A stretch of 44,162 bases of DNA from a virus (taxonomy: Duplodnaviria; Caudoviricetes), in IMG/VR virus record IMGVR_UViG_3300042350_000206, positions 1 through 44,162 of that record; one strand, given 5' to 3'. Numbering within the stretch: position 1 is the stretch's first letter; the number at the start of each line of letters is the position of its first letter. The notes under the pieces were generated by a model that was not told the DNA's origin, made no database searches, and saw only the letters and a list, made by a program, of their open reading frames with translations. The position numbers and the translations under genes are program-made. Below are positions 27,770 to 41,968 of this stretch, in pieces.

Positions 27770-28297
27770 TTATTGAACCTTGATCCCTAGACGCTCCGCA
27801 TCCTCAGAGAGTAGCGACAGAGCCTGCTGATTCATCTCTTCTTCTTCCTTGGCCTTCAGTTTCTCTTTAGCCTTGGAAGCACTCTTGTCGTCAAGCCACC
27901 CACGCTCCAAAAGAAGCTTAGCAGCACCAAACGAAGAACGACCACCCGTACGCATCTCATCTGCGATAGAACGAATAGCCTCAGACTTAATCTTAACCTC
28001 GACTTCCTTACGCCACGCCTCTACGTCTTTCTTAATGTAGTTGCTATTGGACAGTTGAAGCCAAGTCTCCCACGAACCGAAGACCGCCCAAGCGAAGGTG
28101 TACTCCGTAGGGTCTGTGACACAGAACGACAAATACAGCTTACGCAAGGAGGTGTACGTCTTACCCTCACGCACAATGTCAGCTTCCTTGAGGGTGAAGA
28201 TAACGTGCTCAGGTTCAAAGTACGAAAGCTCCCAGAAGAGAGACTTGGTGCGTAGCTTGCCTTGTGACGTACGTAGCTGAGTCTCTGTGAAGAGCAC
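27770..28297 (-). CDS. Probable terminase small subunit
   Basis: DPTEYTFA...FGSWETW..L..WRKEVE.KIKSEA motif; first gene of the late arm; promoter shared with terL. Confidence 0.55.
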   Translation of the reverse strand: MLFTETQLRTSQGKLRTKSLFWELSYFEPEHVIFTLKEADIVREGKTYTSLRKLYLSFCVTDPTEYTFAWAVFGSWETWLQLSNSNYIKKDVEAWRKEVEVKIKSEAIRSIADEMRTGGRSSFGAAKLLLERGWLDDKSASKAKEKLKAKEEEEMNQQALSLLSEDAERLGIKVQ

Positions 28298-28337
28298 GGT
28301 TTCTCTACCTTATGAGATGAACGAATCACTTGTGGCA

Positions 28338-28367
28338 ATTATACCACAGTAGAAATACGTTTGTCAA
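28338..28367 (-). promoter_or_regulatory. Sigma70-type promoter of the late arm
   Basis: TTGACA(28367-28362)-18 bp-TATAAT(28343-28338), TG extension. Confidence 0.75.
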
Positions 28368-28427
28368 CCCCCTATCCTCCATGCTCTGATTACGACACAG
28401 ATGATCTGTATACGACAAAGATAGGGC

Positions 28428-28456
28428 TTGACAGAAGTGAAAAACCAGTGTATAAT
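28428..28456 (+). promoter_or_regulatory. Consensus sigma70 promoter firing into non-coding DNA
   Basis: TTGACA(28428-28433)-17 bp-TATAAT(28451-28456). Confidence 0.85.
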
Positions 28457-28462
28457 AAAACT

Positions 28463-28705
28463 GTCCTTTGGCGGACCCTAGTATATACTCTATAGTATTC
28501 TTCTCCTTAAGGTTCACTCCTACGTAATACTTAAGGAGAAGCTACAGATTCTGCCATAGGTTGGCCTTAGGTCAGACTGATGCGGATTACTCGAAGAGTA
28601 ACTGTAAGATTCCATCGTAGTACGTAAGTACAGCGTCTGTAAGATATCCAATACCTAAGCACTACTCATGCACCCCTATGGTTCACTCCGTAGGGGTTTC
28701 TTTAT
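28463..28705 (+). ncRNA. Candidate ~240-nt structured small RNA
   Basis: Bounded by a consensus promoter and an intrinsic terminator; several nested stems; no convincing ORF. Confidence 0.6.
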
Positions 28706-28707
28706 TT
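28672..28707 (+). terminator. Intrinsic terminator
   Basis: ACCCCTATGG-TTCACT-CCGTAGGGGT then TTCTTTATTT. Confidence 0.8.
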
Positions 28708-28870
28708 GTCGTCTCCACTGAAGCATAGCGTAGGGGTACCCTGTGGGTCTAGGAATTTTTATGAGAAAATCTTTAGGTGCAATGTACGTACAGAGGCTAC
28801 CCGCGCGACCCCCCGCCTCCGGGTCCACCAACGTGATCACAAATGCACCCCCACCCCTAGTTTTGTTATC

Positions 28871-29060
28871 ACATTCGTGTATTCGCATGTGTGCATGTGT
28901 GCATTGTGGTATCAGGTTACCCCATGTTACATTATAACATTGTTGAGGCAAAACACCTCACACACATTCAACTTCCCGCATGTATCTGATTACATTCAAA
29001 GATTCATATGTGTGCACCTACGCACAGACCTGAACGATACACATTCACATATCCGCATGT
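28871..29060 (+). repeat. Four dispersed 20-bp dyads ACATTC-N10-ATGT
   Basis: 28871-28890, 28964-28983, 28992-29011, 29041-29060. Confidence 0.8.
28925..28939. promoter_or_regulatory. Zur-box-like palindrome
   Basis: Minus strand TGTTATAATGTAACA versus Zur core TGTTATAnTATAACA (one mismatch). Confidence 0.45.
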
Positions 29061-29244
29061 TTGCACATGTGTTCGATCAAGCTTGCCAAGGTATCATATG
29101 CAAGAATCTGCATCTGTTGTCGTCTCTACCCGTGAACAAAACGTGAAAACGTCGGGAAGGCCCCAAATAGCCCCGTACAGCGCAATCTACCTTTCCGGCC
29201 ACCCTGATACCTAAAAACTAATGTTCGACATTCACCCCCTGTTT

Positions 29245-29300
29245 GTTCTCGTTCTGTTCTCGTTCCGTTGTCATGTTCCGCTTACGTTCCCCTTACGTTC
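29245..29300 (+). promoter_or_regulatory. Cluster of four alphaproteobacterial-type LexA boxes (GTTC-N7-GTTC)
   Basis: GTTC pairs at 29245/29256, 29251/29262, 29275/29286, 29286/29297. Confidence 0.65.
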
Positions 29301-29308
29301 TCATCCCT

Positions 29309-29391
29309 CGCGTGTGCGTGTGCGCTGGTGCGCCTAGGTGTGCGCGTGTGTGCCTGTGTGCGCGTGATGCGTGCATGATGCGTGCGCGTGT
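29309..29391. repeat. Alternating purine-pyrimidine (GT/GC) tract
   Basis: cgcgtgtgcgtgtgcgc...gtgtgcgcgtgtgtgc...gcgtgcgcgtgt. Confidence 0.8.
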
Positions 29392-29526
29392 TCCTTCCCC
29401 CAACAGAAGGGAGCTATGCAGCCAGTGCATATCCGGTATGCAAAATTAGCTGTAGTATCTTCTGAAAGTATGTCGTTCTCTGTGTCCAAGGAAGACGAAA
29501 CACAGACAGACAGAAGGAAGACAGAG

Positions 29527-29745
29527 ATGAAAGCTTGGGTATCGGTTCAGAAGTTTGGCGACTACGAAACATGTGTCGAATTGTGCGAGTATATCAACAG
29601 CACCACCCTTTATCATGCCATCCTTGGCAGCAACGGGAACCCTGTCATTCAGTGCAGACAGTATGAGCTTGGGCAATTGCTGGCAATCTTGGCAGCCGAC
29701 GAAAAGACAAACTGGATCGAATACACAGTGCAATTCGAATGCTGA
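29527..29745 (+). CDS. Early hypothetical protein
   Basis: AAGGAAG SD, ATG 29527 (MKAWVSVQKFG...). Confidence 0.65.
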   Translation: MKAWVSVQKFGDYETCVELCEYINSTTLYHAILGSNGNPVIQCRQYELGQLLAILAADEKTNWIEYTVQFEC

Positions 29746-29783
29746 CCTTTGGTGACTAGCCTTGCGGGGCTAGCATCCTAAGG
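29746..29783 (+). other. Long irregular intergenic hairpin, RNase III site-like
   Basis: CCTTTGGTGACTAGCC-TTGCG-GGGCTAGCATCCTAAGG between the first two early genes, no U-tract. Confidence 0.45.
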
Positions 29784-29813
29784 ACAACACAACGCAACAT
29801 AAGGAGCGACAAG

Positions 29814-35596: not shown

Positions 35597-35711
35597 CTTC
35601 GGGACTTGGTGGGAGCGAAGGGGTTGGTGGTTCGCACGTAAGCACAACCTAAGTGAAGAAGTCGTAAAGGAGATATGGGATGAAGTGTGTCGCTATGGAT
35701 ATCGAGACTGA
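35589..35711 (+). CDS. Small Trp-rich hypothetical protein (40 aa)
   Basis: AAGGAGAAGGA SD; MNNFGTWWERRGWWFARKHNLSEEVVKEIW... Confidence 0.5.
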   Translation: MNNFGTWWERRGWWFARKHNLSEEVVKEIWDEVCRYGYRD

Positions 35712-36585
35712 CGGGCTGGACCCTACGCGCATCTGGGTGATCTGCTCGAAGGACTTGGACACAGGGGAAGTCATGCAGTTCCTCAACCCATCCCATGTCG
35801 TCGAAGAGAAGGAACGCTTCATTGCTTATTGCAACACTGTTGACAAGTTTGTCTTCCACAATGGCTTGGGTTTTGACGTACCTGTTCTTCATCGTCTTAT
35901 TGGCAGTGCTTGTGTTCCTCTTGCTAGCGTCATTGATACTCTTATTGTATCTCGAATGATCGACTACGACATCAAGGAAGGACACAGCTTGAAGGCATGG
36001 GGTATCCGCCTCGGTCTCCACAAGGGTGAACACAAGGATTGGTCTAAGCTCTCGCAGGAGATGATCGACTACTGCCACCAAGACGTTCTGGTTACCTGTG
36101 CTCTATTCGAACGCTTCCGTAAGTTTATCTTCGACAAAGAGATGGCGATGGGCTTACGTTGTGAACACGATATCCAAATCCTCTGCGAAGAAATGACGAC
36201 CAATGGGTTCAAGTTTGACAAGGAGAAGGCTGAGGAGTATCTGGCTGAGGTCACTGAACGTATGAACGAACTTGAGGCTGGCTTCCAAAGGGACTTCCCT
36301 GCTAAGCTTCAAGAGGTACACAGGGTCAAGTTCAGGGTAAAGCAGGACGGGTCACTGTACTCCACTGTTGTCGATGCTAAGAAGAAATACCCTGTCACTC
36401 ACGTCGATGGAGAAAACTTGATCTGCAAGGATTGGGTACCCTTCGACCCTGCATCACCCCGTCAGCGTATCGACAGATTGTGGGAAGCAGGATGGACACC
36501 CGTAGACAAGACAAAAGGACACATAGAGTATGAGCGTGAGCAACGGATCAAAAACAAGTCCAAGTGGCAAGGACGAGGAAGATGA
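35680..36585 (+). CDS. DNA polymerase A, N-terminal part (3'-5' exonuclease and part of thumb)
   Basis: DIETD ExoI, HNGLGFD ExoII, YCHQD ExoIII; FDPASPRQ..LWEAGWTP. Confidence 0.9.
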   Translation: MKCVAMDIETDGLDPTRIWVICSKDLDTGEVMQFLNPSHVVEEKERFIAYCNTVDKFVFHNGLGFDVPVLHRLIGSACVPLASVIDTLIVSRMIDYDIKEGHSLKAWGIRLGLHKGEHKDWSKLSQEMIDYCHQDVLVTCALFERFRKFIFDKEMAMGLRCEHDIQILCEEMTTNGFKFDKEKAEEYLAEVTERMNELEAGFQRDFPAKLQEVHRVKFRVKQDGSLYSTVVDAKKKYPVTHVDGENLICKDWVPFDPASPRQRIDRLWEAGWTPVDKTKGHIEYEREQRIKNKSKWQGRGR

Positions 36586-37594
36586 TCGTGGAGCTAAGTT
36601 TGCCCGTTACGGGTGGATGTGCAATGAGATGAATCTGTCGACCCTCCCAGAGGATGCACCTGATGGCGCTAGGAACCTATCGGAGTGGCTCACCCTTGAG
36701 GGTCGTAGATCAAGTCTTGTCGAATGGCTGGGCCACGTTAAGGAAGACGGACGCATCCACGGTAGGTTCACCCACATTGGGGCATGGACGGGTCGTATGG
36801 CTCACTCAGCACCTAACCAAGCGAACATCCCTGCAGCCTTCCACGGCACCGCTAAGAGCATGGTCGACAAGGTGAAGGAGAAGTACGACGGGAAGATGCG
36901 TGGGCTGTGGGGTGTTGAGGCTGGTAACTGGCTCGTAGGCACTGACGCTGAGGGTATCCAGCTACGCATCCTTGCCCACCTGATGAAGTCTGAGGAGTAC
37001 ATTCACGCTATCGTCAGTGGACGTAAGGAAGATGAGACAGATATCCATAACCTGAACAAACGGGCTTTGGGTATGTCGCATGTGACTAGGGATATGGCCA
37101 AGACCTTTATCTACGCCTTCCTCCTCGGGGCAGGTAACGACAAGGTGGGGCAGATTCTCAAGGTCAGTGCTAAGGAAGCGGGTCAGGCTGTCGAAAACTT
37201 CATGGAGAGTATCAACGGTCTGAGTCGTCTAAAGAAGCAAGTGATCCCTCACATCGCAGAGATGGGTTGGTTCAAGGGCTTGGACGGACGCAAGGTCAAG
37301 GTTCCTAACGAACACAAGACACTTGCAGGGTTGCTACAGAATGGTGAGGCTGTCGTCATGAAACATGCGGCGCTTAGCTGGACAAACTCCGCAAGAGAAG
37401 CAGGGATTAAGTTCAAGCTAGTCACGTGGCCGCACGATGAATGGCAGACGGAAGTGTACGGAGACAAGGAGCAGGCAGAGTTACTGGGTTCCATCCAACG
37501 TCAGTCCATTGTTGACACCGGGGTAAAACTCAGTATACTGTGTCCTCTCGCAGGATCGACTGATATCGGTCGCAATTGGTTTGACACCCACTAA
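36530..37594 (+). CDS. DNA polymerase A, C-terminal polymerase part
   Basis: TGRMAH..PN, DAEGIQLR motif A, AKTFIYAFLLG motif B, HDE motif C; +1 frame relative to the N-terminal part. Confidence 0.9.
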   Translation: MSVSNGSKTSPSGKDEEDDRGAKFARYGWMCNEMNLSTLPEDAPDGARNLSEWLTLEGRRSSLVEWLGHVKEDGRIHGRFTHIGAWTGRMAHSAPNQANIPAAFHGTAKSMVDKVKEKYDGKMRGLWGVEAGNWLVGTDAEGIQLRILAHLMKSEEYIHAIVSGRKEDETDIHNLNKRALGMSHVTRDMAKTFIYAFLLGAGNDKVGQILKVSAKEAGQAVENFMESINGLSRLKKQVIPHIAEMGWFKGLDGRKVKVPNEHKTLAGLLQNGEAVVMKHAALSWTNSAREAGIKFKLVTWPHDEWQTEVYGDKEQAELLGSIQRQSIVDTGVKLSILCPLAGSTDIGRNWFDTH

Positions 37595-41550: not shown

Positions 41551-41735
41551 TGTTTGGCTTGGAGAACAAACTAAATGCCCTAATCGAGAATTATGGGCTT
41601 GCTTTACTCCTTGAACAGAACGATGTATCTGACTACGTTGTCGTCTTGTTTCTTGTCGAAGAAGGTTACATTGACCTAGCCGACTACTTCAACCTTGATG
41701 CTGAACTGAAAGAATGGAAGAGGATCGAAGAATGA
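41550..41735 (+). CDS. Hypothetical protein
   Basis: TAATG-coupled, ATG 41550. Confidence 0.6.
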   Translation: MFGLENKLNALIENYGLALLLEQNDVSDYVVVLFLVEEGYIDLADYFNLDAELKEWKRIEE

Positions 41736-41968
41736 TGGACTTTGGAGACGCACTACGCGCCCTAAAGCAAGGCAAGCGCCTTTCGCGTAAGGGGTGGAAT
41801 GGCAAAGGCTTGTGGTTGGAATTGCAGGTTCCTGACGCGCACAGCAAGATGACTTTGCCTTACGTCTACCTAAACTACCCGAATGATTCCTTGCACACAC
41901 CGGGCGCTCGGGTTCCGTGGCTTGCCAGCCAGACCGATATGTTGGCCGAAGATTGGGGAGTTGTCTAA
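41732..41968 (+). CDS. DUF2829 / Tad2-like anti-defence sponge protein
   Basis: MDFGDAL.ALK.G..L.R.GWNGKG..PY..PWLASQTDMLAEDW. Confidence 0.85.
   Translation: MMDFGDALRALKQGKRLSRKGWNGKGLWLELQVPDAHSKMTLPYVYLNYPNDSLHTPGARVPWLASQTDMLAEDWGVV

Follow-up and report, generated by a model that had tools for sequence, protein, structure and literature searches.

The virus record IMGVR_UViG_3300042350_000206 (44,162 bases, here called the window) raises the question of why a phage genome should hold some 600 bp of non-coding DNA, at positions 28830 to 29445, filled with short words that resemble the binding sites of several different bacterial transcription factors. A first-pass annotation of the sequence had proposed that this array is a decoy titrating host regulators, or else a panel that senses the state of the host before early transcription, and had overlooked that the region lies at a genome end, across the terminal repeat and the leader. 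We propose, giving the idea an even chance, that the array acts as a docking strip for host proteins, in which distal sites would coat the entering DNA end and proximal sites would tune the first early promoter. Motif and consensus matches, selective conservation, confinement to the early side of the genome and a partition by host class were observed, and from them binding and function are predicted.

Fifty open reading frames (ORFs) of the window were scanned with PHROGs, and 20 mostly small ORFs with Pfam. The genes form two opposed arms, with PHROGs matches to terminase, portal, capsid, primase/helicase, DNA polymerase, thymidylate synthase and PhoH, and none among the 50 to an RNA polymerase, an integrase or a repressor. 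The first-pass claim that the genome encodes no repressor stands insofar as neither scan matched a repressor or helix-turn-helix family, but the absence is not proven because many small ORFs belong to no family. The large terminase subunit (TerL) is closest to those of Roseobacter phage CRP-5 (80.4% identity) and Lentibacter phage ICBM2 (77.5%), by which the window is classed as a cobavirus-like podophage (Zobellviridae; Cobavirinae-like), here in circularly permuted form; its capsid protein is 71.5% identical to that of ICBM2. The cultured relatives suggest a Rhodobacteraceae (alphaproteobacterial) host. The metagenome runs that best cover the window come from lake water, and six RNA runs contained about 0.1 of its words. 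The array is real DNA, spanned by a single contig in run X1, which is possibly where the record came from, and by overlapping contig pieces in run X10.

A blastn search of 28250-29800 against 50,697 phage records gave a sole match, at 28760-28802, which aligns at 86% with the beginning of the terminal repeat in ICBM2. Judged by the ends annotated for ICBM1 and ICBM2, the left genome end of the window would be at about 28782. Direct terminal repeats (DTRs) of cobaviruses are 159 to 173 bp long with a conserved G+C-rich 5' part, according to the portion of PMC6775973 consulted, and such a G+C-rich 5' end is found in the window. From these end comparisons and repeat lengths, the array region is likely the terminal repeat plus the gene-free leader that precedes the first early ORF at 29527 (Table 1). 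Summed contig depth in run X11 peaked at 28761-28964, a weak hint of the repeat from contigs only; the contig data did not fix its boundary. The weak promoter placed ahead of the first early ORF by leader comparison was not picked up by the consensus promoter scan. Two other readings of the region were rejected: a coding one, as there are only weak overlapping ORFs and relatives show indels and module swaps across it, and a structured-RNA family, as the single Rfam match (osmY, E 0.56) was below threshold.

All motifs that had been listed from the sequence were located at their positions. In the window, the multi-copy motifs have no copy outside the array, except for GTTC-N7-GTTC with three in the other 43.5 kb, and their counts were reached in 0 of 1000 dinucleotide shuffles, the patterns having been defined after the sequence was viewed. 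The dense packing of dyads, which had been offered as the signal itself, turned out to be ordinary: shuffles average 9.7 perfect 5-bp dyads and the region has 15 (P ~0.10), with higher counts in three of the window's other 616-bp bins (16, 16 and 17). Generic dyad density was therefore rejected as evidence, and the three single-copy dyads carry no weight.

Table 1. Coordinates of the array motifs and of neighboring features in the window
Feature	Position	Strand	Remark
Last late (structural) arm gene, phrog_8035	27770..28297	-	PHROGs; anchor for retrieving 22 relatives
Consensus sigma-70 promoter (12/12) of late arm, right-end side	28338..28367	-	consensus scan
Unit of sigma-70 consensus promoter (28428-28456), ~240 ORF-free nt and intrinsic terminator (28672-28697), right-end side	28428..28705	+	
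Genome-end signature: conserved pre-end motif, inferred left end ~28782, C-rich tract	28760..28822	+	86% alignment, ICBM2
Likely direct terminal repeat	28782..28950		right boundary estimated from 159-173 bp DTRs of relatives
AAYGTGATMACAAAW / TGTGATCACA-type boxes, two	28830 and 28861-28875	+ and -	within 28830..28875
ACATTC-N10-ATGT boxes, four	28871, 28964, 28992, 29041	+	form ACATTC-N8-(G/A)(C/T)ATGT, span 28871..29060
GTATCWGRTTAC boxes, two	28909, 28982	+	span 28909..28993
Zur box	28924..28940		core TGTTACATTATAACA at 28925-28939
Single-copy dyads, three: TGAGG-N7-CCTCA 28944, TGTGC-N6-GCACA 29011, ATGCA-N6-TGCAT 29098	28944..29113		
LexA-like box GAAC-N7-GAAA (one change)	29134..29148	+	first half-site kept in L008, L022
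GTTC-N7-GTTC alphaproteobacterial LexA boxes, four: 29245, 29251, 29275, 29286	29245..29300	+	
Alternating purine-pyrimidine (GT/GC) tract	29309..29391		sequence
ATGC-N7-GCAT-N7-ATGC, including TGCA-N6-GCAT (LsrB/VtlR-type LysR)	29415..29442	+	TATGCA-N5-TGCATA at 29415, overlapping third half-site ends at 29441
First early promoter, weak, where relatives have TTG-type -35	29450..29486	+	inferred from leader comparison
First early ORF, 72 aa, no family	29527..29745	+	PHROGs, Pfam

Three of the words can be assigned to host regulators by consensus. The four exact GTTC-N7-GTTC direct repeats match the alpha-type LexA consensus published for Caulobacter (available text of PMC12700426), and the same box occurs near lexA in two genomes (G001 and G002). 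The Zur pattern TGTTATANTATAACA, with up to one mismatch, matched in 28 of 61 alphaproteobacterial genomes (tallies of these host-pattern searches include G034, from which no locus was used); 10 of the 25 loci fetched adjoin genes of zinc-uptake type (znuA 6, cobW 3, DUF1007 1), which we take to be members of the Zur regulon, and the window's own 15-mer variant sits between znuA and zur/znuC in the locus L253. As for the LysR-type element, LsrB of Sinorhizobium meliloti binds TGCA-N6-GCAT at positions -72 to -60 of PnfeR1, as shown by electrophoretic mobility shift assay (the part of PMC10746234 consulted); the window has this word at 29417-29430, within a parent element that covers about 70 to 45 bp upstream of the inferred start. 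The triple form of this element recurs in L008 and L022/L023 (spacer changed in L008 and L022), in the DTR of ICBM2 and in 13 viral loci that are more distant. It fails the form GCAT-N3-TG-N3-T proposed for LsrB/VtlR sites of Brucella and Agrobacterium (PMC7486931, seen in part), having GCAT-N3-CG-N3-T instead, and the extended triple motif gave 10 matches in 9 of the 61 genomes against 0 for the control, 7 of the 10 inside long ORFs.

LexA operators generally overlap or abut the promoter they repress. The LexA boxes of the window do neither, lying ~185 to 240 bp upstream of the inferred start, and its Zur box is not at a zinc-gene promoter either: ~560 bp separate it from the first promoter, and the genes that follow include none for zinc. 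The exact LexA 18-mer of the relatives was tried as a pointer to the host and rejected, since its 20 matches in bacterial genomes are close to the 17 expected by chance. Host proteins very probably bind at least the LexA and Zur boxes. The earlier host-regulator reading holds by consensus match for SOS (LexA), zinc (Zur) and a LysR-type site, and it is plausible for the ArsR-like repeats, to which no regulator is assigned.

The ACATTC boxes of the window are one or two changes away from ATTC-N8-GAAT, described as the site of the SqrR/ArsR family (SqrR/BigR) in the part of PMC9774250 consulted. The exact form occurs in four relatives and in the roseophages CRP-2 and CRP-9. Boxes of the AAYGTGATMACAAAW/TGTGATCACA type were also found in five IMG/VR relatives, and the dyad form of GTATCWGRTTAC recurs in four. 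The leaders of relatives also carry a TGT-N12-ACA-type box, absent from the window, which in bacterial genomes flanks genes of the envelope (mlaA 3, ompA 2, porin, OMP and ntrY; 32 of 45 ORFs scanned); its strict pattern was found in 3 of 121 genomes, and in the host genome G073 (locus L208) the box lies between rpsT and dnaA. PpsR, with a TGT-N12-ACA site, was considered for this box and left aside because the neighboring genes are not photosynthesis genes. NtrX was rejected as well, the box reading GCA-N4-TGC and the published motif GCA-N9-TGC (PMC7240162, seen in part).

Relatives were collected by a search with the last late gene, which gave 22 IMG/VR loci, and a search with TerL, from which 80 of 149 were kept. 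Of these 102 loci, 26 (17 distinct) had a left end that could be placed with an end pattern, and ten of them entered the motif tests; L008, L009, L012, L015, L086, L091 and L112 were left out as short, near-duplicate or divergent. The leaders are mosaics of short modules whose order is broadly kept: end motif, TGTGATCACA or TGT-N12-ACA-type boxes, ACATTC plus Zur, purine-pyrimidine tract, LexA and promoter. Between the window and L022, identity is 88/97 in half-sites against 40/75 in spacers and 373/545 in the other leader positions (Fisher P 4e-8 and 2e-6), while the closer L008 has 95/97, 69/75 and 481/545, respectively. Half-sites thus outlast their spacers in L022, and boxes recur and are enriched in the leaders of relatives, which bears out the expectation that motifs are retained despite sequence turnover. 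At the same time, boxes for unrelated signals swap among close relatives. The purine-pyrimidine tract, the densest in the window and possibly prone to Z-DNA, has counterparts in most close relatives, in Klyazma and in Vibrio phage 1.208.B (41 nt).

The sites are confined to the early side. Among 16 right-end non-coding segments (220 to 400 bp) there is no LexA, Zur or ArsR-like box. In 11 leaders (L019 left out, as it has no start mark), the first Zur box lies at a median of 155 bp from the end (standard deviation [SD] 70) and 137 to 559 bp (SD 128) from the start mark, which is a conserved word rather than a mapped transcription start. The last LexA box stands 116 to 145 bp before this mark in eight relatives (SD 10) and 199 bp before it in the window; an IHF-like site stands 78 bp before it in six relatives. 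In ICBM1 the 172-bp repeat includes the Zur box, so that each genome end has a copy.

This layout bears on the proposal that the sites are a DNA decoy, titrating host regulators on entry or after replication and so derepressing regulons such as those for SOS and zinc uptake. A decoy would be suited by sites close to consensus and by the presence of several for each regulator, replication would multiply them, and some viral loci hold LexA arrays of at least five boxes. Yet a single incoming genome carries only one to five sites per regulator, and regulators such as LexA are present in hundreds of molecules per cell. A decoy needs no fixed place, whereas here one non-coding end has the boxes, the other lacks them and spacing is constrained; titrating activators (CRP, sigma-54) would moreover have the opposite effect to titrating repressors, and phage T7 has no such panel (see below). 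We consider the decoy very unlikely, and this half of the first-pass interpretation has poor support.

The other half, sensing, can be put in a pure form in which all sites act on the first early promoter by bending or looping, so that DNA damage, zinc, sulfur and carbon would pace the infection. The fixed LexA spacing and the IHF-like sites are what this would predict, as are the LsrB-type site at the position reported for PnfeR1, the CRP boxes that 1.208.B and ICP2 have directly ahead of the promoter, and the precedents with CtrA (lytic deferment), Spo0A and LexA. However, the Zur and ArsR-like boxes lie ~140 to 650 bp from the promoter at variable spacing, close relatives exchange boxes for unrelated signals, no box overlaps the -35/-10 region, and sigma-54 arrays run in both directions with no gene nearby. 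Most of the distal sites of the window are 200 to 650 bp away, too far out for ordinary repression of the promoter. Sensing of the host state before early transcription is supported for the promoter-proximal sites but not for the distal ones, and as an account of the whole array we find it rather unlikely.

Motif counts in 700-bp leaders were set against 200 shuffles for four groups: the window with five named cobaviruses, a set of ten IMG/VR relatives, 11 Zobellviridae of gamma hosts and one of a beta host. CRP, FNR, sigma-54, IHF and gamma LexA were represented by consensus strings. The window and the five cobaviruses have 5 Zur boxes in 5 of 6 leaders (shuffle mean 0.04), together with 4 alpha LexA boxes (0.13) and 3 ArsR-like boxes (0.00), all of these last two kinds in the window. 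The ten relatives have 8 LexA boxes in 7 leaders (0.15), 9 Zur boxes in 7 (0.07) and 17 ArsR-like boxes in 7 (0.01), and two of them show a one-mismatch CRP-like match (2 versus 0.46). In the gamma-host leaders we found 7 CRP boxes in 4 (0.39), 8 sigma-54 boxes in 5 (0.10), no alpha LexA and 1 Zur. Overall, of eight alpha-host leaders (including CRP-2 and CRP-9), 6 contain alpha-type boxes and none a CRP or sigma-54 box; of the 11 gamma-host leaders, none contains an alpha-type box and 7 contain CRP or sigma-54 boxes. The leader of the beta-host MEP401 has an FNR-type box.

The LexA 18-mer of the relatives had 59 matches in viral contigs, forming 11 sequence clusters (no chance figure is attached to this count). 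At least five (L144, L158, L159, L196 and L202) of the eight loci read share the layout of end, leader and promoter, and L144 led to CRP-2 and CRP-9, which are outside Zobellviridae. The end leader of CRP-9 has two LexA boxes, one ArsR-like box and an IHF-like site, while in that of CRP-2 an IHF-like site is accompanied by ArsR-like boxes and two TGTGATCACA boxes. CRP-9 combines HMO-2011-type packaging genes with a cobavirus-like replication module, according to PMC8528129, in the main text of which "LexA," "SOS" and "binding site" are absent. A shared terminase is thus an unlikely cause of the recurrence and a shared host the simpler one, though the early region may have a shared ancestry.

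These comparisons also weigh on the possibility that the repeats serve phage proteins or DNA structure, as sites for the terminase, for duplication of the terminal repeat or for replication initiation, their likeness to host boxes being partial or due to chance. The region is the packaging junction, several motifs have no regulator, T7 has similar short end repeats, CCTTGG-type repeats stand in place of boxes in L106 and L112, and the purine-pyrimidine tract has a structural look. Against it stand the exact match to the LexA and Zur consensus, the host-class partition and the recurrence in CRP-9 with its unrelated packaging genes. We hold this explanation to be improbable for the array, although it may apply to single modules.

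Other phage ends were looked at as well. In LUZ24 a promoter-like sequence is preceded by one gamma LexA box, and phiEco32 has one weak Zur-like match; a stretch from VPMCC5 contained no leader and was set aside. VpV262 (L117) has sigma-54 -24/-12 sites at ~170 to 345, just inside the left end and in both orientations. Four of them are strict and about two more are looser, and the first ORF comes only at 1034, an arrangement that suits occupancy better than it suits transcription. Phased arrays of three to more than five LexA-like boxes, followed by repeated CCCCAGTGGAAA-type words, stand upstream of the first genes in L146, L161, L173 with related loci, and L181; one blastn search found no named relative of the L146 lineage. 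L202 has many ATGACAT / ATGTCA repeats at ~1200 to 1410 before its LexA box, which we would take to resemble PhoB-type direct repeats.

In the proposed docking strip, the leader end would enter the cell first, by analogy with T7, and no phage protein would be available until the first promoter fires, no RNA polymerase having been matched among the scanned ORFs. LexA, zinc-loaded Zur and ArsR-type repressors, which are expected to sit on DNA when the cell is not under stress, would cover the initial few hundred bases regardless of host state, and in relatives with gamma hosts CRP and the sigma-54 holoenzyme would take over this role. The end-proximal sites are predicted to coat and shield the naked end, for which occupancy would matter more than identity, making the boxes exchangeable. 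The promoter-proximal sites are predicted to tune the first promoter used by the host polymerase: the LsrB-type site is placed where an activator would act, and the LexA box and IHF-like site of the relatives keep fixed distances to the promoter. A close variant, in which bound host proteins would counter silencing by blocking the spread of a xenogeneic silencer, or act as a ratchet against back-sliding until RNA polymerase pulls the genome in, would likewise lead one to expect sites restricted to the early side, exchangeable and tolerant of position, and the leaders have 40 to 52% G+C. It shares the anatomy of the occupancy model, nothing here separates it from end shielding, and we hold it to be highly improbable.

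Several observations weigh against a docking strip. The host searches, made in class-wide samples and in a four-genome family set around G044, yielded no coherent regulon for the ArsR-like boxes (none of these searches being centered on Rhodobacteraceae), for the TGTGATCACA boxes or for the triple LysR pattern (class-wide samples), and the raw Zur count in the 61 genomes was below that of the reversed control (39 versus 64; neighbors of the control pattern were not annotated). A TGT-N12-ACA-type box occurs in 3 of the 16 right-end segments and a Zur-like box in the right end of MEP401. The window leader has no IHF-like site and was counted as alpha-host by inference only. Gamma-type LexA boxes are not enriched in gamma leaders (2 versus 0.51). 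Panel motifs are absent from the CRP-5 leader and, apart from a LysR-type match in 1.015.O, from 4 of the 11 gamma leaders (Pecta, CVT22, RIO-1 and 1.015.O), some gamma records perhaps lacking the true genome end. T7 positions 1-925 (NC_001604) match none of the ten motifs, so a podophage can do without such a strip. P values overstate independence, since the leaders are related to one another and had been viewed before the motifs of the panel were picked. Finally, RecBCD and AddAB displace bound proteins. The wider proposal, that several small lytic podophage families converged on end protection without a phage protein, by high-affinity sites for regulators that the given host class keeps DNA-bound, with host repressors and sigma-54 polymerase as a borrowed cap against nucleases and sensors that attack DNA ends, is tentative and somewhat doubtful.

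Some features of the window lie outside the array. On the right-end side, the unit at 28428..28705 (Table 1) points to the right genome end, with a perfect sigma-70 promoter and an invariant terminator hairpin. The unit as a whole folds at z = -4.0. It is kept in 16 distinct sequences at 213 to 305 nt, the strong common fold being only the terminator and a 5' hairpin, and has no Rfam match. It is a candidate small RNA, or a candidate host-polymerase analogue of the T7 right-end promoter, which is used in packaging. In L016 and L024, an extra HNH-like gene (identity judged by eye) with its own promoter appears to be inserted between terminator and genome end, placing the end ~700 bp away from the last late gene. 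The DNA polymerase (35680-37594) is split into two overlapping ORFs of 301 and 354 aa, likewise in CRP-5, and a Tad2-like (Thoeris anti-defence) domain (PF11195) was found at 41714-41968 (+) with Pfam (E 1e-23).

Among known systems, GIL01 reportedly uses a LexA-controlled lytic switch. In switches of this type, as far as the sources consulted go, boxes sit at lytic or antirepressor promoters of mostly temperate phages, whereas in the window no integrase or repressor was found by the PHROGs scan, and the LexA boxes of the window and its relatives lie 116 to 240 bp upstream without overlapping the promoter. Spo0A sites of phi29 and LexA-controlled lytic switches are cited as cases of a host regulator acting at early promoters in the part of Mascolo et al. 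(PMC9437464) consulted, which also describes CtrA-site clusters in DTRs and gaps of pilitropic and flagellotropic Alphaproteobacteria phages as "lytic deferment." Like the strip, these are host-regulator sites clustered in a non-coding terminal region of lytic alphaproteobacterial phages of several lineages; unlike it, they involve one regulator with binding and promoter control shown, while the strip has sites for several unrelated regulators, mostly distant from the promoter and varying with host class. TTAA-N7-TTAA (CtrA) was not noticed by eye in the window leader, no CtrA matrix scan having been made.

For T5, binding of host proteins during entry has been proposed at an injection-stop region with DnaA boxes, and the entering end is said to need protection before any phage protein exists (Davison, bioRxiv 10.1101/866236, consulted in part). 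This is likewise repeat-rich non-coding DNA near the first-injected end, but T5, a siphophage, injects its DNA in two steps and has a long terminal repeat, whereas the window has a repeat of ~160 to 170 bp, less than 50 bp lie between its end and the strip, and a DnaA array was not noticed in it. Cobavirus DTRs (Bischoff et al., PMC6775973) have the same location and the same conserved G+C-rich 5' end; the text seen describes the G+C-rich motif as a possible enzyme site and no host-regulator boxes, and "promoter" is absent from its main text. The T7 left end, with short repeats and the A1-A3 promoters, is likewise a non-coding leader with host promoters before the early genes, though without the motif panel.

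A multi-regulator strip at podophage ends, or a change of one with host class, was not found in the open-access literature (subscription papers lie outside it). Single-regulator sites in phage terminal regions are already known from the sources seen (CtrA, Spo0A and LexA, with DnaA proposed for T5), and the strip would extend the cases of CtrA, Spo0A and DnaA to a multi-regulator design that varies with host class. For many phages without a terminal protein it is an open matter how their linear genome persists in the cell and begins to be transcribed while phage proteins are still lacking, and here the strip names proteins that can be tested (LexA, Zur, LsrB-type LysR, CRP and sigma-54) and cultured systems, none of them pathogens, in which to do so (ICBM1, ICBM2 and CRP-9). 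If the reading is right, the word list of the strip would predict the host class of uncultured phages and may act as a host-prediction signal for abundant aquatic ones.

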